From the NCBI RefSeq assembly GCF_046105845.1, contig NZ_CP151004.1: DNA of 64,000 nucleotides; one strand, 5' to 3'. The notes under the pieces were generated by a model, which was not told where the DNA came from, did not search any database, and saw nothing but the letters and a program-made list of their open reading frames with translations. Made by a program: the position numbers and the translations under genes. Source of the DNA: Escherichia coli (GTDB taxonomy: Bacteria > Pseudomonadota > Gammaproteobacteria > Enterobacterales > Enterobacteriaceae). This document shows positions 10,458 through 45,463 of the stretch, piece by piece (within the stretch, counting starts at the first letter, position 1; each line of letters begins with the position of its first letter).

Positions 10458-10658
10458 CACGTATACACTTCATCCTTCAGGCTACCTCTGCGTTGGCTGC
10501 GCTCGTTCACCCCGGTCACGTACTTCTGTACGCTCCCGGGGATTCACTCACTTGCCGCCTTGATGCAACCTGAATGATTTTGTGTATATTACCCTCGGCA
10601 ATTTCTTTTTCTGCGGCCCCAAACAATGCGGGCCGCTGCTTAATTTACGGAACTCACA

Positions 10659-12248
10659 ATGAACAATAACGATCTGGTCGCGAAGCTGTGGAAGCTGTGC
10701 GACAACCTGCGCGATGGCGGCGTTTCCTATCAAAACTACGTCAATGAACTCGCCTCGCTGCTGTTTTTGAAAATGTGTAAAGAGACCGGACAGGAAGCGG
10801 AGTACCTGCCGGTAGGCTACCGCTGGGATGATCTGAAATCCCGTATCGGTCAGGAGCAGTTGCAGTTCTACCGTAACCTGCTGGTACATCTGGGCGCCGA
10901 CAATCAAAAGCTGGTGCAGGCGGTGTTCCAGAACGTCAACACCACCATTACCCAGCCGAAACAGTTGACCGAGCTGGTCAGCAATATGGATTCACTGGAC
11001 TGGTACAACGGTGCGCACGGTAAGTCGCGCGATGACTTCGGCGATATGTACGAAGGGCTGCTGCAGAAGAACGCCAACGAAACCAAGTCTGGCGCGGGCC
11101 AGTACTTCACCCCGCGTCCGCTGATTAAAACCATTATTCATCTGCTGAAACCGCAGCCGCGTGAAGTGGTGCAGGATCCGGCAGCAGGTACGGCGGGCTT
11201 TTTGATTGAAGCCGACCGCTACGTTAAGTCGCAAACCAATGATCTGGACGACCTTGATGGCGACACGCAGGATTTCCAGATCCACCGCGCCTTTATCGGC
11301 CTCGAACTGGTGCCCGGCACCCGTCGTCTGGCGCTGATGAACTGCCTGCTACACGATATTGAAGGCAACCTCGACCACGGCGGCGCAATCCGTCTGGGCA
11401 ACACCCTGGGTAGCGACGGTGAAAATCTGCCGAAGGCGCATATTGTCGCCACTAACCCGCCGTTTGGCAGCGCCGCAGGCACCAACATTACCCGCACCTT
11501 TGTCCACCCGACCAGCAACAAACAGTTGTGCTTTATGCAGCATATTATCGAAACGCTGCATCCCGGCGGTCGTGCGGCGGTAGTGGTGCCAGATAACGTG
11601 CTGTTTGAAGGCGGCAAAGGCACCGACATCCGTCGTGACCTGATGGATAAGTGTCATCTGCATACCATCCTGCGTCTGCCGACCGGTATTTTTTACGCTC
11701 AGGGCGTGAAAACTAACGTGCTGTTCTTTACCAAAGGGACGGTGGCGAACCCGCATCAGGATAAGAACTGCACCGATGATGTGTGGGTGTACGACCTGCG
11801 TACCAATATGCCGAGCTTCGGCAAGCGCACGCCGTTTACCGACGAGCATTTGCAGCCGTTTGAGCGCGTGTATGGCGAAGATCCCCACGGTTTAAGCCCG
11901 CGCACTGAAGGTGAATGGAGTTTTAACGCCGAAGAGACGGAAGTTGCCGACAGCGAAGAGAACAAAAACACCGATCAGCATCTGGCTACCAGCCGCTGGC
12001 GCAAGTTCAGCCGCGAGTGGATCCGCACCGCGAAATCCGATTCGCTGGATATCTCCTGGCTGAAAGATAAAGACAGTATTGATGCCGACAACCTGCCGGA
12101 GCCGGATGTATTAGCGGCAGAAGCGATGGGTGAACTGGTGCAGGCGCTGGGCGAACTGGATGCGCTGATGCGTGAACTGGGGGCGAGCGATGAGGCCGAT
12201 TTGCAGCGTCAGTTGCTGGAAGAAGCATTTGGTGGGGTGAAGGAATGA
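10659..12248 (+). CDS. hsdM: Type I restriction-modification N6-adenine DNA methyltransferase subunit HsdM (529 aa)
   Basis: MNNNDLVAKLWKLCDNLRDGGVSYQNYVNELASLLFLKM...; contains the NPPF catalytic motif (ATNPPFGSA) and an AdoMet-binding region. Confidence 0.95.
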   Translation: MNNNDLVAKLWKLCDNLRDGGVSYQNYVNELASLLFLKMCKETGQEAEYLPVGYRWDDLKSRIGQEQLQFYRNLLVHLGADNQKLVQAVFQNVNTTITQPKQLTELVSNMDSLDWYNGAHGKSRDDFGDMYEGLLQKNANETKSGAGQYFTPRPLIKTIIHLLKPQPREVVQDPAAGTAGFLIEADRYVKSQTNDLDDLDGDTQDFQIHRAFIGLELVPGTRRLALMNCLLHDIEGNLDHGGAIRLGNTLGSDGENLPKAHIVATNPPFGSAAGTNITRTFVHPTSNKQLCFMQHIIETLHPGGRAAVVVPDNVLFEGGKGTDIRRDLMDKCHLHTILRLPTGIFYAQGVKTNVLFFTKGTVANPHQDKNCTDDVWVYDLRTNMPSFGKRTPFTDEHLQPFERVYGEDPHGLSPRTEGEWSFNAEETEVADSEENKNTDQHLATSRWRKFSREWIRTAKSDSLDISWLKDKDSIDADNLPEPDVLAAEAMGELVQALGELDALMRELGASDEADLQRQLLEEAFGGVKE

Positions 12249-13615
12249 GTGCGGAGAAATTGCCGGAGGGGTGGGTTGAGTGTGAATTATCCGAACTCGG
12301 TAACATTGTTACAGGGAAAACTCCCAGTACCAAGGAGCCTTCCAATTTTGGAGGCAGCATTCCTTTCATTAAACCAGGCGATCTTGATCTCGGTGGCTAT
12401 ATCATGAATACCGCCGATACTCTGACGGAGAAAGGGTTATCTCTTGTCCCCACTCTTCCTGCCAATTCAGTCGTTGTGACGTGTATTGGAAATTTAGGAA
12501 AAGTTGGAATTACCGCTAAAAAATCAGCATCTAATCAACAAATAAATGCATTGATCCCGTCAGAAAAGCTAAATGTAAAATTTGTTTATTACCAAATTTT
12601 AACATTAAAACCATGGTTAGAGTCTCAATCAGCAGCTACTACAATTGCGATTGTGAACAAGAGCAAATTTTCTCAGGCACCATTTAAATTCCCGTCGCTT
12701 GCCGAACAAAAAATCATCACTGAAAAACTCGATACGCTGCTGGCGCAGGTAGACAGCACCAAAGCACGTCTTGAGCAAATCCCACAAATCCTGAATCGTT
12801 TTCGTCAGGCTATTCTAGCTAATGCTGTGGAAGGAAAATTGACCGACGAATGGCGAGCCGGAAAATGTTATATTACAGAAATCAAAAAAATATCTGATAT
12901 TATTCAGAATGCTCAAGTCGGATTAGTTCGTTCAGCTTCAGATCAAAGCGAAATATGCACTCAAAAAATGAGAACGCCTTATATAAAAATGAATAACATT
13001 CACAATGTTCTCGGAACAAATTTAGAAAAACTCGCTTATGTCAACTGTGATAGCTATGAACTGGAAAAATATAGATTAAAAAATGGAGATTGGCTCTTTA
13101 ATACACGAAATAGTTATGAGTTAGTTGGTAAATCCTGTGTCTGGAATGGATGTAGCAATGCTGTATATAATAATAATATATTAAGAGTTAGACTAAAAGA
13201 AAACTACAATTCTGTTTTTTTAGATTATTGGTTTCACTCGTTCTATGGAGTGAGCATGCTTAATAGTATTAAATCCGCAACAACAAATGTTGCTGCGATA
13301 TATCAGAAAGAACTCTTAAGTAAAAGTGTTCCATTCCCCCCCCTTCCCGAACAAGCCGAGATTGTTCGCCGCGTCGAACAACTCTTCGCCTACGCCGACA
13401 CCATAGAAAAACAGGTCAACAACGCCTTAGCCCGCGTTAACAACCTGACGCAATCCATCCTGGCAAAAGCGTTCCGTGGTGAACTCACCGCCCAGTGGCG
13501 GGCCGAAAACCCGGATTTAATCAGCGGAGAAAACAGCGCCGCCGCGTTGCTGGAAAAAATCAAAGCTGAACGCGCAGCCAGCGGGGGTAAAAAAGCCTCG
13601 CGTAAAAAATCCTGA
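12245..13615 (+). CDS. hsdS: Type I restriction-modification specificity subunit HsdS (456 aa) with divergent AT-rich target-recognition domains
   Basis: ATGA start/stop overlap with hsdM. The conserved central (LAEQKIITEKLDTLLAQVDSTKARLEQIPQIL) and C-terminal (LPEQAEIVRRVEQLFAYADTIEKQVNNALARVNNLTQSILAKAFRGELTAQWR) regions frame two variable segments of visibly lower GC content. Confidence 0.9.
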   Translation: MSAEKLPEGWVECELSELGNIVTGKTPSTKEPSNFGGSIPFIKPGDLDLGGYIMNTADTLTEKGLSLVPTLPANSVVVTCIGNLGKVGITAKKSASNQQINALIPSEKLNVKFVYYQILTLKPWLESQSAATTIAIVNKSKFSQAPFKFPSLAEQKIITEKLDTLLAQVDSTKARLEQIPQILNRFRQAILANAVEGKLTDEWRAGKCYITEIKKISDIIQNAQVGLVRSASDQSEICTQKMRTPYIKMNNIHNVLGTNLEKLAYVNCDSYELEKYRLKNGDWLFNTRNSYELVGKSCVWNGCSNAVYNNNILRVRLKENYNSVFLDYWFHSFYGVSMLNSIKSATTNVAAIYQKELLSKSVPFPPLPEQAEIVRRVEQLFAYADTIEKQVNNALARVNNLTQSILAKAFRGELTAQWRAENPDLISGENSAAALLEKIKAERAASGGKKASRKKS

Positions 13616-13627
13616 TCATTATTTTCT

Positions 13628-13655
13628 GGCGCACCTTTCCGGTGCGCTTTTTATT
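13628..13655 (+). terminator. Rho-independent terminator after hsdS
   Basis: Hairpin GGCGCACC-TTTCC-GGTGCGC followed by TTTTTATT. Confidence 0.6.
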
Positions 13656-13749
13656 ATTTTACGCCAATCATAACTCACGCAAATATATTTAAATCATTCC
13701 AGAAATTGCCTATTTTATTCTATTTTTAGCTGGACTTTCCCTGTATTTA

Positions 13750-13765
13750 CTGATGATATATCCAG
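13750..13765 (+). promoter_or_regulatory. Putative LexA box (SOS operator) in the symE promoter
   Basis: CTGATGATATATCCAG against the consensus CTGT-N8-ACAG (2 mismatches), about 90 bp upstream of the symE start. symE is a known SOS-induced gene. Confidence 0.4.
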
Positions 13766-13771
13766 GTATTT

Positions 13772-13848
13772 AGCGCGGTGCGGATGTGCGCCAACACACC
13801 CGCACCGCTCATCACAATCACTATTCCAGGAGAATAGCAGTTATGACT
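13772..13848 (-). ncRNA. symR: Probable SymR antisense sRNA overlapping the symE 5' UTR, RBS and start codon (coordinates approximate)
   Basis: Placed from established knowledge of the symE/SymR arrangement (a ~77-nt cis-antisense RNA covering the symE translation initiation region). The inverted repeat GCGGTGCGG...CCGCACCGC at 13776..13809 lies within it. Exact ends are not determinable from sequence alone. Confidence 0.35.
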
Positions 13849-14184
13849 GACACGCATTTTATTGCACAACCGTTCGAAGCAGAAGTCTCCCCGGCAAATA
13901 ACCGTCAATTAACCGTGAGTTATGCGAGCCGCTACCCGGATTACAGCCGTATTCCCGCCATCACCCTGAAAGGTCAGTGGCTGGAAGCCGCCGGTTTTGC
14001 CACCGGCACGGCGGTAGATGTCAAAGTGATGGAAGGCTGTATTGTCCTCACCGCCCAACCCCCCGCCGCTGAAGAGAGCGAACTGATGCAGTCGCTGCGC
14101 CAGGTGTGCAAACTGTCGGCGCGTAAACAAAAGCAGGTGCAGGCGTTTATTGGAGTGATTGCCGGTAAACAGAAAGTCGCGTAA
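13843..14184 (+). CDS. symE: SOS-induced toxin-like protein SymE (113 aa; AbrB/SpoVT-fold endoribonuclease-like)
   Basis: [52 protein letters not shown]..., with AGGAG RBS upstream of the ATG at 13843. The ORF track start at 13786 is an upstream in-frame extension. Confidence 0.85.
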
Positions 14185-14345
14185 CAGCGTTTACTCCCGG
14201 TTAACCACCGGGAGCCTTCCACTGACTCAATAGAAACTTTCCCCCTCAGTAAATATTTACCTGCCTGATTGTGCAGTAAAAATCTATTGTTTCAGTACGT
14301 TGCGAAAGCGATAATAGAGGCTTAGCAATGAGGAAGGCACATCTT

Positions 14346-15725
14346 ATGGAATCAATTCAAGCCTGGATTGAAAAATTTATTGAGCAAGCACAGCAACAAA
14401 GTTCGCAATCCACTAAAGATTATCCAACGTCTTACCGTAACCTGCGAGTAAAAGTGAGTTTCGGTTATGGCAATTTTACATCTATTCCCTGGTTTGCATT
14501 TCTTGGAGAAGGTCAGGAAGTTTCTAACGGTATATATCCCGTTATTCTCTATTATAAAGATTTTGATGAGTTGGTTTTGGCTTATGGTATAAGTGACACG
14601 AATAAACCACATGCACAATGGCACTTTTCTTCTGACATACCTAAAACAATCGCAGAGTATTTCCAGGCAACTTCAGGTGTATATCCTAAAAAATACGGAC
14701 AGTCCTATTACGCCTGTTCCCAAAAAGTCTCACAGGGTCTTGATTATACCCGGCTTGCCTCCATGCTGGACAACATAATCAACGACTATAAATTAATATT
14801 TAATTCTGGCAAGAGTGTTATTCCACCTATGTCAAAAACTGAATCATACTGTCTGGAAGATGCGTTAAATGATTTGTTTATCCCTGAAACCACAATAGAG
14901 ACGATACTCAAACGATTAACCATCAAAAAAAATATTATCCTCCAGGGGCCGCCCGGCGTTGGAAAAACCTTTGTTGCACGCCGTCTGGCTTACTTGCTGA
15001 CAGGAGAAAAGGCTCCGCAACGCGTCAATATGGTTCAGTTCCATCAATCTTATAGCTATGAGGATTTTATACAGGGCTATCGTCCGAATGGTGTCGGCTT
15101 CCGACGTAAAGACGGTATATTTTACAATTTTTGTCAGCAAGCTAAAGAGCAGCCAGAGAAAAAGTATGTTTTTATTATAGATGAAATTAATCGTGCCAAT
15201 CTCAGTAAAGTATTTGGCGAAGTGATGATGTTAATGGAACATGATAAACGAGGTGAAAACTGGTCTGTTCCCTTAACCTACTCCGAAAACGATGAAGAAC
15301 GATTCTATGTCCCGGAGAATGTTTATATTATCGGTTTAATGAATACTGCCGATCGCTCTCTGGCCGTTGTTGATTATGCCCTGCGCAGACGATTTTCTTT
15401 CATAGATATTGAGCCAGGTTTTGATACACCACAGTTCCGGAATTTTTTACTGAATAAAAAAGCAGAACCTTCATTTGTTGAGTCTTTATGCCAAAAAATG
15501 AACGAGTTAAACCAGGAAATCAGCAAAGAGGCCACTATCCTTGGGAAAGGATTCCGCATTGGGCATAGTTACTTCTGCTGTGGGTTGGAAGATGGCACCT
15601 CTCCGGATACGCAATGGCTTAATGAAATTGTGATGACGGATATCGCCCCTTTACTCGAAGAATATTTCTTTGATGACCCCTATAAACAACAGAAATGGAC
15701 CAACAAATTATTAGGGGACTCATAG
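14346..15725 (+). CDS. mcrB: 5-methylcytosine-specific restriction enzyme McrB (GTPase / AAA+ DNA-binding subunit), 459 aa
   Basis: MESIQAWIEKFIEQAQQQSSQSTKDYPTSYRNLRVK..., with GPPGVGKT Walker A and a DEIN Walker B-like motif. AT-rich composition. Confidence 0.93.
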   Translation: MESIQAWIEKFIEQAQQQSSQSTKDYPTSYRNLRVKVSFGYGNFTSIPWFAFLGEGQEVSNGIYPVILYYKDFDELVLAYGISDTNKPHAQWHFSSDIPKTIAEYFQATSGVYPKKYGQSYYACSQKVSQGLDYTRLASMLDNIINDYKLIFNSGKSVIPPMSKTESYCLEDALNDLFIPETTIETILKRLTIKKNIILQGPPGVGKTFVARRLAYLLTGEKAPQRVNMVQFHQSYSYEDFIQGYRPNGVGFRRKDGIFYNFCQQAKEQPEKKYVFIIDEINRANLSKVFGEVMMLMEHDKRGENWSVPLTYSENDEERFYVPENVYIIGLMNTADRSLAVVDYALRRRFSFIDIEPGFDTPQFRNFLLNKKAEPSFVESLCQKMNELNQEISKEATILGKGFRIGHSYFCCGLEDGTSPDTQWLNEIVMTDIAPLLEEYFFDDPYKQQKWTNKLLGDS

Positions 15726-16771
15726 TGGAACAGCCCGTGATACCTGTCCGTAATATCTATTACATGCTTACCTATGCATGGGGTTATTTACAGGACATTA
15801 AGCAGGCCGACCTTGAAGCCATACCCGGTAACAATCTTCTTGATATCCTGGGGTATGTATTAAATAAAGGGGTTTTACAGCTTTCACGCCGAGGGCTTGA
15901 GCTTGATTACAATCCTAATACCGAGATCATTCCTGGCATCAAAGGGCGAATAGAGTTTGCTAAAACAATACGCGGCTTCCATCTTAATCATGGGAAAACC
16001 GTCAGTACTTTTGATATGCTTAATGAAGACACGCTGGCTAACCGAATTATAAAAAGCACATTAGCCATATTAATTAAGCATGAAAAGTTAAATTCAACTA
16101 TCAGAGATGAAGCTCGTTCACTTTATAGAAAATTACCGGGCATTAGCACTCTTCATTTAACTCCGCAGCATTTCAGCTATCTGAACGGCGGAAAAAATAC
16201 GCGTTATTATAAATTCGTTATCAGTGTCTGCAAATTCATCGTCAATAATTCTATTCCAGGTCAAAACAAAGGACACTACCGTTTCTATGATTTTGAAAGA
16301 AACGAAAAAGAGATGTCATTACTTTATCAAAATTTTCTTTTTGAATTTTGCCGTCGTGAATTACCATCTGTAAATACAACTCGCCCACATTTAAAATGGG
16401 ATGCATCAAGCATATCGGATCAATCACTTAGCTTGTTACCTCGAATGGAAACTGACATCACCATTAACTCATCAGGGAAAATACTTATCGTTGATGCCAA
16501 ATACTATAAAAGCATTTTTTCACGACGAATGGGTACAGAAAAGTTTCATTCTCAAAATCTATATCAACTGATGAGTTACTTATGGTCGTTAAAGCCTGAA
16601 AATGGCGAAAAAACAGGGGGGTTATTAATATACCCACACGTAGACACCTCAGTGAAACATCGTTATAAAATTAATGGCTTCGATATTGGCTTGTGTACCG
16701 TCAATTTAGGTCAGGAATGGCCGTGTATACATCAAGAATTACTCGACATTTTCGGTGAATATCTCAAATAA
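15725..16771 (+). CDS. mcrC: 5-methylcytosine-specific restriction enzyme McrC (nuclease subunit), 348 aa, GTG start overlapping the mcrB stop by 1 nt
   Basis: Reading from the GTG at 15725 gives (M)EQPVIPVRNIYYMLTYAWGYLQDIKQ...; a PD-(D/E)XK-type region (ILIVDAKYYK) lies near the C-terminus. The ORF track start (15695) is an upstream in-frame extension. Confidence 0.9.
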   Translation: MEQPVIPVRNIYYMLTYAWGYLQDIKQADLEAIPGNNLLDILGYVLNKGVLQLSRRGLELDYNPNTEIIPGIKGRIEFAKTIRGFHLNHGKTVSTFDMLNEDTLANRIIKSTLAILIKHEKLNSTIRDEARSLYRKLPGISTLHLTPQHFSYLNGGKNTRYYKFVISVCKFIVNNSIPGQNKGHYRFYDFERNEKEMSLLYQNFLFEFCRRELPSVNTTRPHLKWDASSISDQSLSLLPRMETDITINSSGKILIVDAKYYKSIFSRRMGTEKFHSQNLYQLMSYLWSLKPENGEKTGGLLIYPHVDTSVKHRYKINGFDIGLCTVNLGQEWPCIHQELLDIFGEYLK

Positions 16772-16827: not shown

Positions 16828-19800
16828 TCAGGAGGCGATCACCTCCACCAGCACATCCGTTGCCCAACTCTCTTCGCTGTTGGCGACATTCCCTTCCTTG
16901 CAGGCCTGAGCCATTTTGACTAACTGGAAAGAAACGTCATCGCGGAAATCAAAGTAATGCCATTGCGATGCAAAGTTGATGCGCCAGTAGCCCATCCCCT
17001 GATCGAAGCGGATCTTCAATACCTGACCATCATCAAAAGTCACCGTCAGTTTACGATGGTGAGGGATATCGCGCGGCGAGTCGAACACCGTCAGTTCTAC
17101 CGGCCTGCCCAGCGCAGCAGCAAACCACTGATCAGCGAAATCCTGAAAATCCGCTATGCTCATCCAGTCATGGAAAGGCCGGTTACCGGGGCGATCTTTA
17201 TCTTTAAATAGCGTATCCAGCGTCACTTCAGCGCCATCGGTCAGCTTTGTTTTTAGCGGTCTCAAAATTGATCCCAACAACGCCAGCGCAACCGGGTTTT
17301 GCAGATAGCGATCGGTATAGTGAACGCCGGTAATTCGCGTGTTATTCATCAGTGACTGCGCTTCTTCATGGTCGTTAAACAGCACGTCCCAGAAGCGTTG
17401 CCCAAACTGCGACAGTGGTCCATTCAACTGTTTGTGGATCTGAATGTCTTTGACCCGCTCGACAGCGTTGGCGGCTTTAGCCGGCAGAATAAATTCGTTC
17501 AGCTCTACCGTTTTATAGCCGAGACTACGTACCACCAGTTCGTCATTCAGGTGCCACTCCGGCCCCGGAATCGTTGCCTGCTGGCTACGAGAGGCCAGCG
17601 TCATCACGCGATCGGCAAAGGTGACCTGAGCAACGATCGGTAATTTCAAATCCTGTTCAACATGGCATAGCCGCACACCCAGCGCAGTAAATTGCGATAG
17701 TTCGTGCAACAGGTCCGGGTCATCCACTCCCGCAGGAATAACAAGATCGACCTCGACGTTGTCTTTTAGCCGATAGTTCTGAACCGCCGCGCGGAACTGA
17801 CGTGCGTATAAATCCCACTCATTGGGCGCGCCGGTCATCCACAGGGTGAGCTTTTCAGCGCCTTCGTTAATCGCCCGGCGAATCGTATCGCCAATGGCGC
17901 CAGGGCAGTAGCGGGCATCCGGCAGCGAGAATGTCTCTTCATCCGGTAAACCGATGTAATACGTGAAGTCATCGCCAAGCCAGGCCAGCGCCGCTTTGCG
18001 ATCCAGCAAATCGTGATCGTGGCGAGTCTGGGAATCAAGCAGGCATTCACTACATGCAGTCTCACAATGGCGGCAGCCTAACTGTTTCACCATTCCCTGC
18101 AATATAGCTTCAATGTGTACCGGTGCGCTGGAGGCAAAACCTGCACCACCGCTGATCACATCATAAAGCTGTACGGCTAATACCGATTGCCCATCCTCCA
18201 GTCTGACCGGACGTACAGAATAGCCGAGTTCTGCGGCGGAGATACCCAGAACGCCCGCCAGCGCCTGACGCAGAGCAACCGCCAGAGTCATGGCAACAAT
18301 CCGCCCCTCCTCTGTGTTATCTGGCAGATACTCGCCGTTTTGCGGTTTGCGCAGAACCATTTCAAAGACATCGGTGCGCGCCAGTGCGCCCAGGGTGACG
18401 TTCTTCATGAGTGCCGTCGAACCGGGGCAAATCAGACGATGATTCTGGCTATCGCGGTCCGCTTTACCCGGACGCGGTGGATAGTGAGCTTCCATGCTTT
18501 TCGGCGCATCATTTTCATTCAGCATCGACTCAGCACGGCCACAGCTCAGACACAATGCATAACCGTGTCCACCTTCCCCCAAACTTTGCTGGAAAACATG
18601 CCCATCAGCCCCAGAAGCCATATAACCCATTAGCGGGTTAGGCAACGGTACGGGCTCTGCTTTAACAAAGACCCACGCGGGGACAACCGGGACGAATTTC
18701 ATGGTTTCAATATTGTTCGTTACCGGAGCGTGTGCATCGGTGACAAACCCGGCAGGCTGCAGCACCTGACGGCGATTATCCATGATTATTTTTTCGCCGC
18801 AGGCGCTATTGGAGCAAAAGAGCATCCCGGAACTGCTCATCCCCTCTTCATAGCCAATGGTCCCGCATTTGTGACAGCGCCAGGCGCAATCCAGACGCTG
18901 GGCTTCATTGGTATCAGCATTAATGTTGTGCCAGTGCAGTGAGACACCGGCAGAGCGGAAGACACGGCCATCAAGAATGATCTCTGCTCCCGGTGCATAT
19001 TCACGAATGGCAACACCGAGGTTACGGGAAGGTAATCCTTTATAACGGGAGACGTTATCTTCACGGTCCTTTTTATCACGACTTTTTTGCGATTTTTCGC
19101 GGATATAATCTTCCATTGTGAAGTTATCAAACGTCACTACATCTGTCGGGAAACCGTATCCCGGCAAGAAGGTTCTGGCAGCTAGATCGCGCAGCAGATA
19201 CTCGCCACAGTGCCGTTTCTTCTCCAGCTCTATGCGCTTACGATAAGGCGTTTGCGGCTGCGACTCACGCTCCTGTGTCACGAGATCGCGATAAACGGAG
19301 AGCCACCGCTGCTGCAGGAAGGTGATCGCGTTGATTGTTTTATCCCGCAGATATTCGGCTCTTGCACCATGCAACGCCGTACCTTTCACCAGCCGTTCCA
19401 GCGCCGTGTCGATATCAAGAACAGGGCGTTCCAGCCAGACTTTGAAGCGTTCGCATTTTGACTGCCCGTCATCTTCACCGAAAAACCAGAGGCTATCGAG
19501 GCTGGTTTTCTCTTTATCGGTTTCGCCAATAACGTTACATAAAAAGTCGGACAGTAATAATGCATTGACGTGACGTTGCACCAGTCGGGCGGAGTTCATC
19601 GCGACCATGGGTGCCGGGATCATGGTTTCAAATGGCCAGAGCGGGTTGGCAAAAACCTGCTGGTCGTGTGGGTTACCTTTACATAGGGTGTAAGAGATCG
19701 CACGTGATTCTTTACTACGCCCGGCTCGCCCGGCGCGCTGTAAATAGTTGGCCGGATGTGGCGGTACGTTGTTCATTACCACCGCAGTAATGCCCCCGAT

Positions 19801-22800
19801 ATCAACCCCCATTTCCATGGTGGTGGAACAGTTGAGAACATTTAGTTGCCCATTCTTGAACATCTTTTCATAGCTTTGCAGACGTTCTGACGACTGCTGG
19901 GCAGAGTGCTCGGCAGTGCGATAGTAGAAACCGCCTTCCACGACACGATCGTTGATGTCTGTCCAGACGTTTTCCGACCGCAATTGTGCGATCAGCGGAT
20001 CATTGCTGACCCAGTCGCGTGCTTTTGCCAGACCCTCTGCGTAGTCTTCCTGTGAACGATCCAGCTTCCAGATTTCCGGCATGGTGACTTTCTGCGCGAC
20101 AAAAGTGTCATATTGCGCCTGGGTAAGATGCTCGAACGAAATATGGGTAGGCAGATAAGGGGTTAAGCCTTTAAAAGCCGTATCCAGGATTTTATTGGTT
20201 ACCGGGCAAATCCAGGCATCCGTGATTAATGAAAAAGTCATATGCTCTTTCGGTAAATAAAAACGGTTGCCATCGGGTTTCAGTACTGCAAGCGGTCCGG
20301 TAAGTTGGGCCCATGCTTCTTTCAGCCATGTATTGATAATATCAATAGTCGCCGTATTGACGGTTTTGAATCCAGCCCCCAGCATCAGTAACTTCGCTAA
20401 ACGATGGGATACGTTGCCATTACGAATTTGAGGCCAGCGTCTGTTCTGATTATCTTCAGGATCTTTTGATTCCGGGTTACGGACGAATTTTGATGAAAAA
20501 CGGCTACCGATCCAGTTTTTCAGCTCATCATCCAGCTGTGTGAAGTTGCTCTCACGAACGTAATGATCCAGCGTAACTTTGAGAAAATCGCGCCAGTCAT
20601 CCAGCGTTAATCCTTTTTCCTGCCAGTGCAGAGGGATCTTATGTATTTTCTCCAGCCCCAGGTAACCAACCTGAACCAGCCCTTGTGTTTCCAGGCTGTT
20701 AGTCCGTTTAGGGCGACGCATGAATTCCCGGAATAACAACATTTCCGAAAGCTTTAGAGGCCCGCCGTTTTCATTAAACACTTCAGGCTTAAGATAATGG
20801 TTATATTGCAGAACCGGGCCACGGATATCGGCTCTCTCTTTAAGCTCGTTAACCATTTCTGTCCAGGTTCGGGATACCAGAGTAATTGCAGCTTTTCCAC
20901 CGATTGCAGACTGGTAAGCCTGTTCAAGCTGCTCGGCCTGCGCTTCTGATAATTTCGCTTGATCCGGCAATCCCCAGCTTCGATATTCTTCTGCCTGCTC
21001 ACGGGCTTGCTTTACCCTGGTCGCTAATTTTTCCAGATCGGCATTAGCGTTCGGCGCCGTGGGCGTTTGCGTTCGTTGATGCCAGCTCAGAATTTCGACT
21101 ACGCTTCCGCGTAAGCGACTACGTTCTGCTTCTTGCTGCATACGCACCGCCATCCGGGCTGTCCCTTGTCGACTATCCGTAAAGGTAATGAGTCGACGTC
21201 CTCGCCCTGGCAACGAATCTGGTCCGACGCCCTCTTTGCCTTCATCACTGGCAAAGTCCTGACAATACTCAAGAACGGTAGGCACGATGTTAGTAACGTA
21301 AAATGGCCCACCTAATAATGCACGCCGAAAGGGTTGTTTTCCGCTCATGCCTCGGTAGCCACAGCCGCTGGCGCTACAAACCTGTTCAATATCATTAATA
21401 ATCAGCGGAATGCTGTCATTATTAATAACGCCAATACGGCGCGTCTGACGGTCGAGGCGTTGTAGGGTATAGCCTGTCTCGCTGGTCTCTCCTGCGGCAA
21501 TAATCAACGGAGGCTGGAAACTGTTCTCTTTTTCGACTTTTTCCTCTGTAGTGTCATGTTCAACAGGTACTTCATCCTGCAAGGAGAACTCATCGCCACC
21601 TTTATTTTCCCATTGGACAAGTTTGCCCTTTTTGTCCTGCGCCAGAAGATGAGGCTCATTACAATCATTACAGAACGCCACTTCGTATACAGGGCTTCCA
21701 CAGTCACAATTTTGTCGCTGGTTCACATACACATAGCCAAAGGGCCAGCCTTTTTCGAGCGGTGTACCGTGCTTTAATCTGCAATCTTTATCAACACAAG
21801 CCCATATTCCCTGGGTATTACGCTGGAAGATATGCGCCCTGACTTTAAGAAATGCGGGATCCTTTGCATTAGGTTGAGTCCCTGAACAGACATCGATCCA
21901 ACGCAGTACTTCCTGCTGGCTGTAATGCTGTTTTGTCAGCACGTTTAACCGCTCTGTTATCTCATCCAGCTTCATCGGATTGGGCTGTTTGACCAACATC
22001 TCACGTATGTAACGCGCTTCGGGGGAATGCGTAAGCGCATAAAAGCGATCAGGACTTATACCTTTAATTTTATTATCATTTTTATCTCTTAGATCCAGAT
22101 CGGGTATTTGCTCTATTTCGTCTAACGGAAGAGAAACGTTTTTGGATGGTTCCAGTTCAGGAATCACCCGACTTCCGTCCAGAACATCGATGCGCTCCTT
22201 CGGGATACCGGATAATTCAGAGAGAAATTTTTTCAGCTGCTTTTCGACGTCGCTGCCGGCAATGGTCGCAGAGGTCGCTACAAAGCGCACATCATCTGGC
22301 GTCACGCCAAACGCTGTCATCACACGACGCAGCTGGAGCGCCAGTTCAGCGGCCTGCGACCCGACATAGGTATGCGCTTCATCCAGTACAATCCAGCGTA
22401 GTGATTTTTGTGCTTTGGATTGCTGGATAATCGGGGCGTCGACCTGGCGAACCATCATATATTCCAGCATCGTGCCGTTGGTCACCAGAATCGGGGCAGG
22501 TTCTTCACGCATTTTTTCGCGCGAGAGCACCTCATTCGGCCTTTTTGCCTGTTCGCTTTTTACCGAAGCGTGTAGGTTTTCGGTGTTACCGTTGTAAAGG
22601 CAGTAGCGGATCCCGGTACCAAAACCACGCGTCCAGGCATCCAGACGCTCGCGCTGTGAATTAATCAGGGCGTTCAATGGATAGAGAAAAAGGGCTCGGA
22701 CACCGACCAACGGATTGTTGCCATTTTCATGCAGTTCCCGGTAAAGATCTTCCAGCACCGGTACCATAAAACATTCCGTTTTACCTGAACCCGTACCACT

Positions 22801-23172
22801 GGTTACCACCACTGAATGTTTCTTTTCCAGCAAAGCTTTCCAACTGGCTAACTGGTGTGTAAAAGGCTTCCAGTCAGCACCAAATCGGTACCGGCCATTA
22901 CTCTGATCATCCAGTGAATCAACCACTGCTTTGCTCAACAATGCGTTGCCTTCCGTCAGACTGCGCATCGTGTGGTTTGACTCCTTCCAGCCAAACATTT
23001 GCTGGAATACCGGAGAAGCAAGGAATGAGCCCGGTTTCCCACAATCAGCCCCCATTTGTTGCGCGAGATGTTCACGCAGCTGCGGGTTGGTTACGCCCAT
23101 GATACTGAGCGTTGCTTCAGTTGAACGAGACAACGATTGTTCAATAAGTGACGAAAAATAGCGTGTAGTCAT
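16828..23172 (-). CDS. druE: Giant (2114 aa) SF2 DEAH-box helicase with MrfA-type Zn-binding (DUF1998/MZB-like) Cys clusters; candidate Druantia type III DruE-like defense helicase
   Basis: Walker [10 protein letters not shown] (~22780..22800), DEAH box VLDEAHTY (~22367..22384), SAT motif, motif [10 protein letters not shown] (~19718..19741), Cys4 clusters CHKCG...CSNSACG and [11 protein letters not shown] (~18040..18880). Forms an operon with the 1112-aa gene upstream (12-bp gap). The DruE name is inference from size, architecture and locus, not a verified hit. Confidence 0.75.
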
Positions 23173-23184
23173 CCTTATTCCTTT

Positions 23185-26100
23185 TTATTTTTTAGCAACA
23201 TAACGCAACAGGCTGCACTGAAAGATGGTCTTAAACCAGCGGGAATCGAAGTCCCTGACTTGCCTCAGGAAAAATACGGCACCGGGTTTACGGTCAAATA
23301 CAGCTTCAAAAGAAGTATTTCCGCTTGCCACAGCTGCAGCGAAGACGGGTAACCAGGCCACGGAATAGCGGTGATTTGCGTCAGGATTAATACCAATCAC
23401 TGGCTTTTTTTGTGACATCATCCATTTATACAGACGCTTGCAGCCATATTCAGGCCAGCGAGCTTCACTGTGCTCACGTAAAAGCTCCTGATACCACCCG
23501 TGGACACAAGATTCAGGAATAGACGGAGGGAGATATCCGTTACTTAACCATTTCTCAATTTCATCGGCATATGTCGGGAACACGAGCCCCAGCCGTTGAA
23601 ACATATTAGTAACCAGTAATTTCTGGGTTTCCTCCGGTGCACCTTTTTGGCTCAGGAACAATTTGAAACGCTCAGATGCAGCTTTGATCTCAAAGATGGG
23701 GAAAAACTCCCATAGAATAGGGAACTCATTCTCAATACGACTCAGGTACTCTGCTGACATTTCAAATTTGAAGAGCGACATTGCCAATGCCTGCGGATGC
23801 TGCACCAGTGCACGCCATACTTCAAAGGTTGCCAGTGGTAAATACCCGAATTGATCGTACAGGCTACGCATAAATTGCCAGCCGGAATGGGCAGGATCGT
23901 TAGCCATCTGTCCGAGAACCAGTGTGATGGTATTAACTTCTGCCTGTGGATTAAAAAGCTGGGTCGCTTTCTGCAATGAGCGGATGTTGCTTTCTTCTAC
24001 CGGTAACGAAGATTCGCCACGAATGAAGCAGGGACGAAAAGCCATCTCTTCACCCGGTTTAGGGACAACCAACCACGGTCCATTTTTGTTAACGATTGAG
24101 CTCAACTCATATTCACCGACAGGCACTCCCTCGCTCATTCTAGATGCTAAGGGAATGGATTTCCTCTCGGGTTCACTTAACAGCATGATAACGGGGGAAG
24201 GAATCTGCCCAGCACGATGGTTCACTGACTGGCTGAGTAATAGTTCTTTTTCATAATCATAGCGCAGGCTGTATTTATAGCGACGAATTTGCCAGGCCAT
24301 GACCACACCTGCCCCCGTAATACGCATCTCAACAACCTGATCAATACCTGCCTCAAGTGAAATCAGGTTCTCAATATGTTCGCGAAGACTATAGAGATTC
24401 AATTCAACAGGACGATCGCTCAACGCCGTATAACACCATTCATGCCATGCCTGTAATCCACTAACGGAGCGCAAATACAACTGCAATGTATATTTTGTCG
24501 GCTCACCATTTCTGGAGAACAGAAACGCTCTGGAACCCAGCAGATCATGCAGCGTAATGTTTTTATCCAGAGGACGTCCGTTTACATCAAGAGCGAGACA
24601 GCCTTTAGCGGGAAAAGGTAACTCAATGTCGATGGGGTCAGCCGCCAAATTAGGCAGAACTTGTAATGTAATAAATGCCGGAGGTACCCCTTCCGCTTTA
24701 AGTTGTATCTCTGTTCGCCCCTCAGTACGCTTACGTGTAGCCTCCAATGTTTTATCTTTAAGTTTTGCTACACAAGGATGCTGTGTGGTGATTAAGATAG
24801 TGCCTTCATTTGCGTGCATTCCACCTTTTATCTCAATACTGAAATCAGCAGGCAAGATACCGATTTTGCGACGCAAGAGCGTTTCATTGTTACTATTACG
24901 GATAGAAAGATATTGAGCCCCCAGCATCTCTTGTATATGACATTGCTCAATTGAAATTCCGCTCAGGTAACGCGTTACATCAATGCTTTGAATATCCGGT
25001 AGTGTAGAAATGACTTTTGGTACACCAATAAATGTTTCATCTGGATGACAAACCCAGCTTGCACGCTTTCCATTTAGAGCAAACCTTCCGATGCTGATTT
25101 GTTCTCTTCCGGTGCGAATCCGATAAGTTTCATTTGCTGTAACTGTAACGTCCTGACATCCCTTCACAGGTAGTGCTTTTAGTCCTAATACGTTTACTGC
25201 GCTCGATTGGCCATCAAAACCAGCAACATTGCTATTATCCCGAGGGAGTACAATCAGAACATCGCTGCTTCGCACACTGCAAGAAGCCTGTCCCTGTAAC
25301 AGCCATTGATCTGCATCAACGATGAAGGTTAACGGCACCTCACCAATGGCAATTTCACTGTCATCAAGTTTAATGCTCCCAACAATCATCCCTCCAGCAC
25401 GAGCCACTAATGACAAACCTGCCGATGGATTTTGCCTGACAAATCTCACTTCGCTTTTACGTAATCGAACTGTTGCCTGTCTGTTTTCCAGGGAAGCATA
25501 GGCTGGCCCAAGGCCAGAGACTTCCTCACCATCTTCACAAATGGCAAGTTCAAAGCGCGTAGTTGACGGCTCGCTTGTTACAGGAAAGGAAACTTCGTCC
25601 GGAAGAGATACTATCACCCTAAGCTCATCTGGATGCTTTTCTGACCAATAGAATTGGCAACGCGTACTCTTATTTTTTTGTAGTCGAGGCTTAGCCTCTA
25701 CAGAGGCTGCGCATAGCAGTCCATTCAAAAAATGCGTTCCTGTTTCATCATCTAACGGTATTGGAAACTCGCTTCGCCAGGTAGGGTGAACCTTCTCAAG
25801 CTGTTGTACTGGTTCTTTGTGATTTATTAGGTTGTGAGTAAGTACTAAGGAATTGAGGTTATCAGCCATATGACTGATAAGTTCTACAGAGGTATCTTCG
25901 CTAAAAACAGTTGGCAGCGCTGATTTTTCTATGACAGCTCTTGCCAGCGAAAGGGCAGAAAAACCTGACTGCTTTGCTTGCTCATATTGTCCAAGGATCC
26001 TGGAGAAAACAGCCAGAAAGCGACTGTCTGATTCTTTGAGTAGCCGGAAAGGTAAACCACCTTCACTGAATAATGTTCCGAGAAAATTGCGTCGTTCAGA

Positions 26101-26523
26101 TTCATAAAATCGAATTGGGCGCAGCCAGTAATCTTCCATCCCTTTCGGTACGATAGTACCAAGCTCTGTGGCGGTGAATGAAATCCCTATTTTTTTATAT
26201 ATAGGGTCCCACGTCCATCCGCATTGCCGTTCATAATCCCTGCGGTACCACTCAGAGCAAAAAAGAACAAAACAGGCAGCAAAGTCCCTATTACATATAT
26301 TAGATTGTGATTGATCGACCGCACGGAGTAGCTGCGTTAATTGGGTATATTCATCATTGGTTGCATGATATTCATAAAGAGGACGGCCATCCGGTTGTCT
26401 CAACCCTCTAAGATTCACAAAGTTACTTAGCCAGGAAGTACATTTTACCCATGAAATGTATTCTGATTGACCCAAAGCAAGCTCCTTAGAGATAAAAGAT
26501 ACAAAAACAAAACCCCACAACAC
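23185..26523 (-). CDS. druH: Large (1096-1112 aa) protein of unknown function encoded immediately upstream of the giant helicase; candidate Druantia type III DruH-like partner
   Basis: Uninterrupted 1112-codon ORF with no recognisable catalytic motifs, co-directional and near-contiguous with the helicase gene. Start is uncertain: GTG at 26523, or TTG at 26475 preceded by a strong AAGGAG SD. An AT-rich promoter region lies upstream (26524..26970). Confidence 0.65.
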   Translation of the reverse strand: MLWGFVFVSFISKELALGQSEYISWVKCTSWLSNFVNLRGLRQPDGRPLYEYHATNDEYTQLTQLLRAVDQSQSNICNRDFAACFVLFCSEWYRRDYERQCGWTWDPIYKKIGISFTATELGTIVPKGMEDYWLRPIRFYESERRNFLGTLFSEGGLPFRLLKESDSRFLAVFSRILGQYEQAKQSGFSALSLARAVIEKSALPTVFSEDTSVELISHMADNLNSLVLTHNLINHKEPVQQLEKVHPTWRSEFPIPLDDETGTHFLNGLLCAASVEAKPRLQKNKSTRCQFYWSEKHPDELRVIVSLPDEVSFPVTSEPSTTRFELAICEDGEEVSGLGPAYASLENRQATVRLRKSEVRFVRQNPSAGLSLVARAGGMIVGSIKLDDSEIAIGEVPLTFIVDADQWLLQGQASCSVRSSDVLIVLPRDNSNVAGFDGQSSAVNVLGLKALPVKGCQDVTVTANETYRIRTGREQISIGRFALNGKRASWVCHPDETFIGVPKVISTLPDIQSIDVTRYLSGISIEQCHIQEMLGAQYLSIRNSNNETLLRRKIGILPADFSIEIKGGMHANEGTILITTQHPCVAKLKDKTLEATRKRTEGRTEIQLKAEGVPPAFITLQVLPNLAADPIDIELPFPAKGCLALDVNGRPLDKNITLHDLLGSRAFLFSRNGEPTKYTLQLYLRSVSGLQAWHEWCYTALSDRPVELNLYSLREHIENLISLEAGIDQVVEMRITGAGVVMAWQIRRYKYSLRYDYEKELLLSQSVNHRAGQIPSPVIMLLSEPERKSIPLASRMSEGVPVGEYELSSIVNKNGPWLVVPKPGEEMAFRPCFIRGESSLPVEESNIRSLQKATQLFNPQAEVNTITLVLGQMANDPAHSGWQFMRSLYDQFGYLPLATFEVWRALVQHPQALAMSLFKFEMSAEYLSRIENEFPILWEFFPIFEIKAASERFKLFLSQKGAPEETQKLLVTNMFQRLGLVFPTYADEIEKWLSNGYLPPSIPESCVHGWYQELLREHSEARWPEYGCKRLYKWMMSQKKPVIGINPDANHRYSVAWLPVFAAAVASGNTSFEAVFDRKPGAVFFLRQVRDFDSRWFKTIFQCSLLRYVAKK

Positions 26524-28843: not shown

Positions 28844-28943
28844 TGCCGGATGCCATGTGAACGCCTTACCAGGGCTACAAAAATCTTTAAAATTCAATAT
28901 ATTGAATTAGTTATGTAGACCTGATAAGCGTAGCACATCAGGC
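28844..28943. repeat. Two REP-like palindromic elements in the yjiR–rpnD intergenic region
   Basis: TGCCGGATGCCATGTGAACGCCTTACCAGGGCTAC and CCTGATAAGCGTAGCACATCAGGC, which match REP-type consensus fragments. Confidence 0.45.
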
Positions 28944-28970
28944 AGCTTTGCGTTTGTCATCAGTCTCTGA

Positions 28971-29928
28971 TTAGTACTCGATCCAAGGATCGCGCTTGCT
29001 TTCAGGCAAGGGCTGCTCTAATGCCTGCATTTGCTCTGCCGAGAGTCCGGTATATCGTTGTATCCATTCAGGATCTGCCCCATTCTGCAACAACAATCGG
29101 AGGAGGCTCCGTTCCCCTTCTACTTTCCCTTCTTTCCTCCCCCTCTCCCTTCCCAACAGCCATCCATCATTATGAATTCGCTCTGCAATCGTCATTATTC
29201 GCTCCCTTTGTTGTGGCATTCGACTGGTTAGTTCGCTGATAAACTCTTTAAAACGCGCTTCATCGCCAGTCAGTAAAATGTAATTTAACAGCGCAGTTAT
29301 CTGGCTGTCATTAGTACACTCTGTAACCAGTAATACTACCAGTTGGTCGATAAGTCCCATCAGATCGCGCTGGCGAATATGCTTTTGGATCAACTCCAAC
29401 AGGGCGACTCTGCGATGCTGCACAATCTCGTCGTCTGGCACGACAGTGACATCCACCAGCGGGAACGCGGCGTTATAAACTTTCCGTGCGGTAGCCGGGT
29501 CGGCAAATTCGTCCAGCCAGCACAGGGACCAGGGATAAGGACTACGGCTACCGTGATAAAACAGCATCGGGATGACCAGCGGTAGCGGCCGGCGTTTATC
29601 ATGCTCGATATGGCGCTGCATCACCGCCATGGAATAGCGCATAAGGCGAAACGCCATATGAATATCCTCGCGGCTCTGATGTTCAATCACTACGTAAATA
29701 TAACCATCACCTTCACGGGTCTTTACCGACCACAGAAATATCGGAATGTAGCGCCCGCAATTTTTCATCGACAAAGCTGGCGGATTCCAGTTTTAAGCTG
29801 TCGAGATCGCACAGTTCACGTAAATCTTTGGGTAAGTGGATCTCCATAAAATCCCGCGCGGTGTCAGGGTGCGTGAGAAAGGATTTAAATAATGCGTCAT
29901 GCGGCGTGCTGGTTGTGAAGTTTGTCAT
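28971..29928 (-). pseudogene. rpnD: Rpn (YhgA-like, transposase_31 / PD-(D/E)XK) recombination-promoting nuclease, disrupted by a frameshift
   Basis: N-terminal fragment (29713..29928; [33 protein letters not shown]...) and C-terminal fragment (28971..29774; ...[21 protein letters not shown]...) are in different frames, overlapping around 29713..29774, consistent with a 1-nt indel. Confidence 0.7.
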
Positions 29929-30405
29929 GGCGATCCGTCACCTGTAGATAAGATGGCCCGACTGTAGCGACTAACAAAACCATTCTCACCCGGCAATTTC
30001 TCGTTCCCCGAGGCGCTTTCCAGGCTATTTTTATTCTTCTGCAAACGATACATTTTTCCGGAAACAGGCTCGCATTTTACATTTCCTGTACCCGGCAGAT
30101 ATTCCCCTTTCCACCGCGCTCTTTTGATTAACCGCAAATTTTAATTACACTTAAGGTGTATATTTTCTATGCAACCCATCAATTCAAGAGGTGTAATGTG
30201 CTGATGACTATTTGTAATCGTTATACATTCTGACCTGGAGTCAGAAGGTATTTCTCTGTCTGTGTGTTCACAGGCAGTGTGGTTGATTACATGAAATTCA
30301 GTACATTTGCAGTCTCGTTGCCCTTCTCGCCTGCCTTTCGTCATTACCGACGGTATTGAATTTCGTTTTCCCCGTTGGGGTTCTCCGGACAAGGAGTTGT
30401 TTGTT

Positions 30406-43200: not shown

Positions 43201-45463
43201 CTTCACGCTAAGTAGTGAAACCGCCCGCACCGATGCAAACGGCGATGCCGTGGTCACATTGCGTGGCACAAAAGCGGGTGAGTTTACAGTTACGGCGACG
43301 CTGACCAGAAATAATACCGTTGCTCATCAGCAAGTCACTTTTATTGGGGATACAAACAGCGCGCAGCTCCAGCCGCTGACTGCCTCATTAAATACCATTG
43401 TTGCGGGTAACAGTACGGGGAGTACCCTGACGGCAACGATCCTGGACGCTTACCAAAATCCGCTTAAAGACCAGCAGGTCACTTTCCAGAGTAACGATGT
43501 CACTCTAAGCGGAACAGAAGTCACCACCAATACGCTGGGTCAGGCGACAGTAACAATGACCAGCAATATTGCCGGGCAACATAACGTCGTGGTGAGCCGG
43601 AAAGCGCAAGCCTCCGATAATAAAACGTTTAGTTTATCAGTGCTGCCGGATGAAAGTTCGGCGAAGGTAATAAGTATAACCGGAGCCGAAAAAACGATAA
43701 CGGTTGGCGAAAACATCACGCTACGGATACTCGTCCAGGACGCGTTTAACAATGTAATAGCGGGTCAACGCGTCAGATTAAGTGCGCAGCCAACAGCTAA
43801 CATTACGATAGGCGATACGGCTTACACTGATAATAACGGTTACGCGTACGTTAACCTTCTCAGCACCCAGCCTGGGGTTTATCAGGTGACGGCAACGCTG
43901 GACAATAACAGTAGTAGTAAGGTTGATGTGAATGTGGCAAATGGCAAACTCGAGTTAACATCATCGAAGCCAGAAACCACGGTCCATAACAGTGAAGGTA
44001 TTACGCTGACCGCAACGGCGAGAAATGCACGGGATGAATTGATGCCAGGGCAAATTATCACCTTTAGCGTAACGCCTGAAGGTGCAACGCTAAGCAATAC
44101 AGGGGAAGTCCTTACTGACCAGTCTGGTCAGGCCAAAGTGACGCTGACCAGTAACAAAGTGAATGTCTATACCGTTACGGCCACAATGGGCAAAGATGTT
44201 CCCGTTCAGAGCCAGGTAACGGTTGCGGTTAAGGCAGATGCTAAAACGGCACATGTTGTGAGCGTCGTGGCTTCTCCTGACACCATAACCGCCGACGGCA
44301 TCGATAGCAGCACCGTCACGTCACGAGTAGAAGATGATTACGGATTCCCGGTTGAAGGTGTCGATGTTCGTTACGCCTTAGACACCAAAGGTCGCCCGGT
44401 AGTTAATATTCCAACTACGCGTACCGATCAGTCCGGGCAAGTCACGGCGACAATAACCAGTACATTGGCAGAAACCTTAACGGTCAATGTGCAAGTTCCT
44501 GGTACAGCCAACCAATCCGCAGCTATTACCTTGCTTGCCAGCACGGCGGATGAAAGTAAGTCATTATTGAAATCCGACGTTGGCACTCTGATGGCTGACT
44601 ACCAGCATAGCGCGAAACTTACGCTAACATTGCAAGACAAGTACGGTAACCCGATAGTGACGTCTGATCATCTGGAATTTGTCCAGTCAGGTCCCTTCGT
44701 GAACTTTCTCAAGTTGAGCGATATTGATTACAGCCAAAGAAATTATGGCGAGTACACCGTGACTGTCACTGGCGGAAAAGAGGGAACAGCGACCCTCATT
44801 CCCATGCTGAACGGGGTTCATCAGGCAAAATTAAGCGTATCGCTGAATCTCATCCAATCGATAAAAGAAATGTCCGGTCATGTCACTGCAAACAACCATA
44901 CCTTCTCCACGGCTAAATTCCCGAGCGAAGGTTTTGCAGGAGCGTATTACACACTCAACAATGATAACTTTGAAGCGGGTAAAACCGTTGATGATTATAT
45001 GTTTTCAAGTTCACAGAGTTGGGTGTCTGTCGATGCGTCAGGTAAAGTTTCTTTCTCAAATATCGGCGATCAAACGTCAGTCACAATAAGTGCTGTTCCC
45101 CGACAAGGAGGTACAACCTACCAGACCTTAATTAAGCTGAAAGGCTGGTGGGTGAATAATGGAAATCATACCAATATCTGGCTAGCTGCCAATGCGCTCT
45201 GTCATGCGAAAAATGATGGATATAATCTTCCTGGCATCACACATTTGACGTCTGGCGAAAACAAACGCACGCAGGGATCACTGTATGGTGAATGGGGGAA
45301 CGTTGGAGCGTTTTCCAGTAATTCGCAATTTACACAAGGTGCTTACTGGACAAATGAATCTGATGATTACAATAGGCACTACTATGTACAGATGCTAACG
45401 GGTATGACCGGAAGCGACGCTGATTCCAGCCCCCAACTGACCGCCTGCCGTAAATCACTTTAA
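40223..45463 (+). CDS. Giant (1746 aa) inverse autotransporter adhesin of the intimin/invasin family: LysM, beta-barrel, tandem Big_1 Ig-like domains, C-terminal lectin-like domain
   Basis: N-terminal signal region; LysM (YTLGALESAQSVADRFGISLEELRRLNQF); intimin/invasin-type barrel (FDFLHPWYDTPDYLLFSQHTLHRTDDRTQINTGLGWRHF...); more than ten repeats of the ...TLTATVTD...NPL...V.F... Big_1 pattern; C-terminal Cys-containing domain. Confidence 0.85.
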   Translation: MASTNAHQIKNNDQNSLCGLGDKIRRLTAGVCLFTQIFFPVMATAQNVVHAKPQTTVSSPSPLIENNTVPYTLGALESAQSVADRFGISLEELRRLNQFRTFARGFDNVRQGEELDVPATTLQKSHEQQNAVPPANGENTLENQIASTSQRVGTLLSQDMNSEQASGMARGWASSEASGAMTNWLNNFGTAKISLGVDEDFSLKNSQFDFLHPWYDTPDYLLFSQHTLHRTDDRTQINTGLGWRHFTPSWMSGINLFFDHDLSRYHSRAGLGAEYWRDYLKLSSNAYIGLTGWRSAPELDNDYEARPANGWDLRAEGWLPAWPQLGGKLVYEQYYGDEVALFDKNDRQSNPHAITAGLNYTPFPLLTLSAEQRQGKQGENDTRFAVDLTWQPSSSMQKQLNPDEVAGRRSLASSRYDLIDRNNNIVLEYRKKELIRLSLLDPVKGKSGEIKPLVSSIQTKYALKGYNIEAAALEAAGGKVSTSGKDITVTLPGYRFTNTPETDNTWSIDVTAEDVKGNLSRHEQSMVVIQAPTLSQKDSLLSVNPLTVAADKKSTTTLTVTAHDSDGTPVPGLALQTRSEGVQDITLSDWTDNGDGSYTQMLTAGTTSGSVTLTPQINGESAVKESIVVNIVPVVSSRDHSSITIDNVSYYAGDDIKVRVELKDDSNQPVAYQKEELVKAVTVENSKPGATIVWHEERPGVYTANYPAHKQGTALRAQLSLHNWNAPLQSHIYNIEANQNKARVATLSATNNDVYADKKTFNTLTINVTDESDNPLTNHQVTFKNEKGSAEFVEPPQQNTDAYGVATINMVSQVAEENTISATLPNGFSQRIIAKFVSDSSTPKFKQLVADPDTIIAGNSQGSTLTATVTDFHNNPLKDMKVNFVAPGGSQLDNTSATTDQSGIVRVHLTSSKAGSYSVDASLEANKNIHQSVTITVVPNREQSVMTLNAGSGSAIANNTNTVILTASVKDVYGHPLPDEDVKFTLPASMTGNFTLSSETARTDANGDAVVTLRGTKAGEFTVTATLTRNNTVAHQQVTFIGDTNSAQLQPLTASLNTIVAGNSTGSTLTATILDAYQNPLKDQQVTFQSNDVTLSGTEVTTNTLGQATVTMTSNIAGQHNVVVSRKAQASDNKTFSLSVLPDESSAKVISITGAEKTITVGENITLRILVQDAFNNVIAGQRVRLSAQPTANITIGDTAYTDNNGYAYVNLLSTQPGVYQVTATLDNNSSSKVDVNVANGKLELTSSKPETTVHNSEGITLTATARNARDELMPGQIITFSVTPEGATLSNTGEVLTDQSGQAKVTLTSNKVNVYTVTATMGKDVPVQSQVTVAVKADAKTAHVVSVVASPDTITADGIDSSTVTSRVEDDYGFPVEGVDVRYALDTKGRPVVNIPTTRTDQSGQVTATITSTLAETLTVNVQVPGTANQSAAITLLASTADESKSLLKSDVGTLMADYQHSAKLTLTLQDKYGNPIVTSDHLEFVQSGPFVNFLKLSDIDYSQRNYGEYTVTVTGGKEGTATLIPMLNGVHQAKLSVSLNLIQSIKEMSGHVTANNHTFSTAKFPSEGFAGAYYTLNNDNFEAGKTVDDYMFSSSQSWVSVDASGKVSFSNIGDQTSVTISAVPRQGGTTYQTLIKLKGWWVNNGNHTNIWLAANALCHAKNDGYNLPGITHLTSGENKRTQGSLYGEWGNVGAFSSNSQFTQGAYWTNESDDYNRHYYVQMLTGMTGSDADSSPQLTACRKSL

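Follow-up and report, generated by a model that had tools for sequence, protein, structure and literature searches.

Rpn-family genes encode a nuclease that can be toxic and, within their 3' end, a second and much smaller protein. When such a gene is found divided between two reading frames, the question is whether it is dead, unusually decoded or incorrectly sequenced, and what becomes of the small protein encoded inside it. This question was examined for a gene at 28971..29928 (minus strand) in a 64,000-nt stretch of Escherichia coli DNA, referred to hereafter as the window. The gene is the rpnD (yjiP) pseudogene, assigned from synteny, its PF04754 domain and alignment, and measures 958 nt versus 957 nt in intact alleles. 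Our answer, in which we have high confidence, is that rpnD is present here as a real null allele, passed on by inheritance, that would have arisen once and was then recombined, and from which the small C-terminal product RpnD-S is probably still made.

The region 28971-29928 was present in 4,245 of 5,426 complete E. coli genomes (megablast), and the annotation at the matched loci was always [quoted passage not shown]. The gene order in annotated E. coli records was yjiN - mdtM - rpn - yjiR - yjiS; since the rpn gene sits between mdtM and yjiR, it is rpnD, formerly named yjiP (PMC5350276). The position was thus established on both sides: between mdtM and yjiR in the annotated genomes, and beside an hsd/mcr/mrr region among the window's own neighbours. 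The PF04754 profile (Transposase_31, YhgA-like) was split between two ORFs, positions 1-57 falling on a 71-aa ORF (E 2.7e-22) and positions 58-202 on a 267-aa ORF (E 1.9e-57), so that both fragments carry the Transposase_31 domain of the family; an intact RpnD orthologue matched the same profile with E 3.7e-86. The first-pass annotation, made from the sequence alone, had named the gene rpnD, an Rpn/YhgA-like PD-(D/E)XK nuclease, and the domain match, the synteny and the alignment of alleles all agreed with this name. No second rpn paralogue was found in the window by tblastn. PADLOC contained no model matching RpnD, whether intact or fragmented, and therefore gave no independent support for its assignment to a defence system.

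Within the window, rpnD neighbours a Druantia type III system, a McrBC-like gene pair, hsdRMS and mrr; this block is the immigration control (defence) region of E. coli, which rpnD is known to border. The restriction block (5843-16771) consists of mrr (5843-6757, minus strand), hsdR (6945-10457), hsdM (10659-12248), hsdS (12245-13615) and a pair of genes for a McrB-like AAA_5 protein and McrC (14328-15725 and 15695-16771, respectively). KTE66, which has the same rpnD frameshift, differs in its restriction block, where GmrSD and another type I system are found. The Druantia type III system of the window is complete (16828-26523, minus strand), with DruH (23185-26523, minus strand; 1112 aa; PADLOC DruH3, 1829 bits) and DruE (16828-23172, minus strand; 2114 aa; DruE3, 2697 bits; DEAD, Helicase_C and MZB domains). 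DruH and DruE are the intact forms of the yjiT and yjiV remnants of K-12 (Pfam YjiT_N and YjiV_N). A match to the SymR antitoxin sRNA just after hsdS (13772-13848, minus strand; Rfam RF01809, 93.5 bits, E 5.5e-17) implies a symE/symR type I toxin-antitoxin pair. The rpnD-yjiR intergenic spacer contains GCCTGATGTGCTACGCTTATCAGGTCTAC at 28915-28943, which we take to resemble a REP (repetitive extragenic palindrome) element. Elsewhere in the window, a very long ORF of 1746 aa (40223-45463, plus strand) lies downstream of yjiK/yjiJ-like genes.

Alignment with the 957-nt HS-01 allele and with K-12 located the lesion: the sequence GATATTCTGTGG of intact alleles has become GATATTTCTGTGG in the window, that is, one T has been added to a T-run (TTT versus TT) at 29736..29738 (minus strand; gene nt 191-193), between codons I64 and L65. 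The 5' fragment ORF (29713..29928, minus strand; 71 aa; from the ORF listing and PF04754) carries D11 and D63 and ends at a premature TGA in the shifted frame (29713..29715, minus strand). The 3' fragment ORF (28971..29774, minus strand) holds E82, Q84, the rest of PF04754 and a variable tail; it is 267 aa long when read from a TTG or 265 aa from an ATG at 29768, and visual inspection showed no Shine-Dalgarno sequence ahead of either of these codons. The two ORFs overlap at 29713-29774 (62 nt) in different frames, and no single continuous ORF covers the whole PF04754 domain, because the T added behind codon 64 shifts the frame, which then closes at a stop once 71 codons have been read. When one T was deleted, a 318-aa protein was obtained that was 97.8% identical to HS-01 RpnD over the full length, with no further lesion. 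These results reproduced the earlier description of parts of 71 and 267 codons that overlap out of frame, of a junction after ...LHSDI and of a single-nucleotide indel, with one correction: the intact length is 318 aa and not the approximately 300 aa expected there.

The consequence for the long protein (RpnD-L) can be judged from its paralogue, since D11A, D63A, E82A and Q84K each abolish the activity of RpnA (PMC5350276). The residue numbering of RpnD is identical to that of RpnA for these four catalytic residues, and in the repaired translation D11, D63, E82 and Q84 stood at the same positions, encoded in two frames. Because D11 and D63 lie on the 71-aa peptide and E82 and Q84 in the other frame, the PD-(D/E)XK site cannot form on one chain. 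Owing to the single T that follows codon 64, translation beginning at the usual start ends after 71 residues, neither product can form the active site, and the toxic RpnD-L is gone. On the basis of the RpnA mutagenesis, we infer that the nuclease activity of RpnD-L is lost. The first-pass annotation had considered the gene probably inactive; this stands for RpnD-L only, and does not extend to the nested C-terminal ORF of RpnD-S, which is untouched by the lesion.

The exact 71-aa and 265-aa products were found on 18 and 11 contigs, respectively, by the cluster table (NCBI, ENA and Logan records), and on 24 and 18 contigs by contig look-ups; KTE66 carries both (ELE46177.1 and ELE46178.1). The distinct samples included GCA_000351625.1, SRR10499460, SRR17689971, SRR12643344, SRR12605517, SRR27242220 and one metagenome scaffold. 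Over 6 kb, the identity of these +T loci to the window ranged from 100% down to ~96-97%, the contig of SRR10499460 being 100% identical across the 6.2 kb compared, and their defence-island neighbours varied, some loci having Druantia III and others GmrSD together with SymE and type I R-M. None of the 5,426 complete RefSeq E. coli genomes matched the 101 nt around the site exactly: 4,189 complete genomes matched there, all differing from the window, and the three best matches differed by exactly the one-base gap. The +T allele is rare and lineage-restricted. For the segment 24000-36000, the best match among the 5,426 genomes was only 98.0% identical, in contrast to the 100% of SRR10499460, indicating that the source lineage is poorly represented among complete genomes.

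All +T alleles had one haplotype over nt 1-285, except for G72A, which was specific to one of them (L005). This haplotype, including T183, was common to the +T alleles and the intact L007 and L008 alleles; apart from these alleles, T at nt 183 was found in strain NRZ14408 and isolate 362, in both cases in an intact allele. Beyond nt 285, in the downstream part of the gene, the +T alleles diverged at differing points and bore three types of RpnS tail (74, 70 and 62 aa), the differences among them being recombinational blocks and not new mutations. Since a common 5' haplotype is combined with three 3' tails, the simplest reading is that the insertion would have arisen once, in a haplotype resembling that of NRZ14408, and that recombination with intragenic breakpoints then took place at least twice. 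As the haplotypes suggest, recombination with breakpoints inside the gene would have moved the +T allele to different backgrounds. The shared haplotype with different tails in independent samples also means that the extra T is not an artefact, since an artefact could not give that pattern.

What remains of such a gene depends on its second product. According to Zhong et al. 2023 (PMC10400941), rpn genes have an internal in-frame start that produces a small C-terminal protein, RpnS, which specifically blocks its cognate long toxin, RpnL, and an internal transcription start is reported in all rpn genes. In K-12, five of five RpnS proteins were detected, RpnD-S among them, and RpnD-L was undetected (same source). 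Like those systems, rpnD encodes a PF04754 nuclease and has an in-frame internal Shine-Dalgarno sequence and ATG in its C-terminal tail, its four-amino-acid repeats begin ~12-15 residues past the internal Met, and the tail is homologous to the crystallised RpnA-S. Unlike them, the toxin half is broken, as judged from the sequence in the window, so that the combination of toxin and cognate antitoxin is incomplete. Antiphage defence by RpnD itself is not shown in the passages of PMC10400941 consulted.

The nested ORF, named RpnD-S by analogy with the published RpnS antitoxins, is intact (28971..29195, minus strand; 74 aa; stop at 28971). Its predicted translation start, in frame with the 3' ORF, lies at 29193..29207 (minus strand) and comprises the Shine-Dalgarno sequence AGGGAG (29202-29207), a 6-nt spacer and ATG (29193-29195), which would provide the window rpnD with the in-frame internal ribosome-binding site and start codon of this family; this motif was invariant in all 13 of the 13 alleles that retain the region. 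A candidate internal promoter of the sigma-70 type (29282..29311, minus strand; ATGACA, an 18-nt spacer and TG-TAAATT), which might drive the short transcript, lies ~90 nt ahead of this start; it is a weak consensus match, and the number of sigma-70-like sites was near chance (3 found versus 2.2 expected). A block of four-amino-acid repeats (29106..29153, minus strand) was defined from 12- and 36-nt indels between alleles. Tandem Repeats Finder, applied to 28900-30000, returned no repeats, since this array of 12-nt units is too short and degenerate. The RpnD-S alleles of 62, 70 and 74 aa differed by 4 and 12 residues, from residue ~12-15, and thus vary in repeat number as do the RpnL-RpnS systems of PMC10400941.

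When a profile of RpnD-S variants was compared with crystallised RpnA-S (7TH0), hhalign gave a probability of 94.6% (E 7.3e-8; 41% identity over 37 columns); by this sequence comparison, the tail of RpnD-S is homologous to the three-helix domain of RpnA-S. The phmmer match between RpnD-S and RpnA-S was weak (E 0.69). The AlphaFold model of RpnD-S, of low confidence (pLDDT 63), had a long first helix and two short ones, and 7TH0 ranked first among the PDB matches to this model in Foldseek, at a non-significant E of 1.7. The Pfam scan of the 74-aa RpnD-S gave noise only, HTH_Rpn_C being without a match, and the precomputed tables held a weak PF27070 HTH_Rpn_C match on the 265-aa ORF.

K-12 rpnD has a premature stop, yet its RpnD-S was detected, and on this ground production of RpnD-S from the window allele, as in K-12, appears reasonably probable. 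Keeping its Shine-Dalgarno sequence, ATG and ORF, RpnD-S would probably be transcribed from the internal promoter and translated, resulting in an orphan antitoxin-type protein. We regard it as unlikely, if well worth weighing, that the whole locus is dead, with RpnD-S either unmade or without a role once its toxin partner was lost. An antitoxin without a cognate toxin has no obvious job, and RpnS acts in a manner specific both to its own RpnL and to the number of repeats (PMC10400941); however, all five RpnS proteins of K-12, including that of the rpnD pseudogene, were detected in the same study. The region is not always kept, since a related allele (L012) lost its tail to an IS66 insertion and the P0030 allele is frameshifted within the repeat block, but the +T allele, the 10-bp-deletion allele and the K-12 amber allele all keep the Shine-Dalgarno sequence, ATG and ORF. 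Within a short evolutionary time, an ORF of 225 nt can also be expected to stay open by chance, and intactness is no proof of function. Continued production of RpnD-S from an otherwise null allele is the reading that we prefer.

Early loss of RpnD-L was found in other alleles as well. A premature stop has been described for yjiP/rpnD of K-12 (PMC4498929). Like the window allele, K-12 rpnD (yjiP/yjiQ) occupies the mdtM-rpnD-yjiR locus, has its long nuclease truncated early and keeps the nested ORF; the lesions differ, C310T (Q104 amber) without an indel in K-12 versus one T added after codon 64 in the window, and the K-12 tail is shorter, its repeat block lacking 36 nt and its RpnD-S measuring 62 aa versus 74 aa. 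The exact K-12 61-mer was present in 338 complete genomes, presumably for the most part laboratory derivatives of K-12. Another null allele has lost 10 bp and encodes a product of 64 aa (for example EMW13271.1, strain 88-3493); it resembles the window allele in the early, independently acquired knock-out of RpnD-L and in the intact RpnD-S, but is a deletion rather than an insertion, at nt 167-176 (~15 nt upstream of the window lesion), and has a different haplotype. Its 64-aa product was found on 214+ contigs and is commoner in draft assemblies than the +T allele; the count in complete genomes (~4) is approximate, being an identity-band count confounded by half-length perfect matches. In one locus (L012; GCA_013354885.1, 3723-6118), the 10-bp-deletion allele also contains an IS66-family element (TnpA/TnpB/TnpC) in the 3' part of rpnD, and the RpnD-S region has been removed. 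Among intact alleles, RpnD of HS-01 (WP_203030697.1, 318 aa) resembles the repaired window protein in length, synteny and tail type as well as in identity (97.8%). The intact RpnD of most E. coli is a continuous ORF, presumably giving an active RpnL toxin plus RpnS, whereas the window ORF is split.

The three independent lesions (+1 T, 10-bp deletion and K-12 amber) all fall within the first third of rpnD and spare RpnD-S. Overexpressed K-12 RpnD, once repaired, was one of the most toxic paralogues (PMC5350276), and recurrent loss is therefore unsurprising. That the early knock-outs spare RpnD-S, and that the 5' end of the +T allele has been joined by recombination to three different tails, may reflect either selection on the orphan RpnS or the larger mutational target upstream, the alleles examined being few. 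A stronger proposal, that E. coli repeatedly drops RpnD-L while selection keeps and diversifies the orphan RpnD-S, seems to us doubtful. Under that proposal, the orphan RpnD-S might serve as an anti-addiction factor or as a cross-neutralising factor against incoming Rpn toxins.

A different way of saving the long protein would be recoding: a programmed +1 ribosomal frameshift, or transcriptional slippage, giving full-length RpnD-L at a low level and so regulating a toxic protein. Low-level expression of a toxin would make biological sense, and the frames overlap by 62 nt, so that they could be joined by a +1 shift at any point of 29713-29774; however, the site AUU-UCU-GUG matches no known +1 slippery motif, no Shine-Dalgarno-like stimulator was seen by eye upstream of the site, and the 101 nt around it folded no better than shuffled sequences (z = +0.96). 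For RNA-polymerase slippage, the T3 run of the window is far too short. All 4,189 matched complete genomes differ at the site, the closest three just by being without the extra base, and since the orthologues are single-frame, there is no conserved requirement for a frameshift. Compared with prfB-type frameshifting (slippery site, stimulators and a conserved shift requirement), the site thus lacked motif, structure and orthologue support alike. Programmed frameshifting, which the first-pass annotation had left open, accordingly found no backing in either slippery and stimulatory motifs or local RNA structure, and we consider it very improbable.

Even less credit is due to a sequencing or assembly error, by which the gene would really be intact and the extra T a homopolymer miscall: the lesion is indeed a one-base length change within a short T run, at a 101-nt site without an exact match in any complete RefSeq E. 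coli genome, but a three-base run is not a typical place for such errors, the identical frameshift products recur in many independent assemblies and SRA runs (18-24 contigs), and these include loci that differ from the window by 1-4% in the surrounding DNA and have different 3' tails, so that this second reservation of the earlier annotation is effectively excluded.

Published work already covers the gene family and the locus, as well as the tendency of that locus to become a pseudogene and the gene-within-gene layout; the allele is an ordinary null of a known gene. By itself it matters little: the gene is non-essential, toxic on overexpression and a pseudogene in the reference strain K-12 too, and this is one more null of it. 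For annotation, the two ORFs, which are labelled "hypothetical protein" and "transposase" in KTE66, would be better merged as one rpnD pseudogene, and the 74-aa ORF of RpnD-S should be recognised as possibly still coding. Beyond the single allele, the repeated occurrence of early knock-outs in which the small gene survives could serve as a population-genetic test of a role for RpnS that is independent of its toxin.
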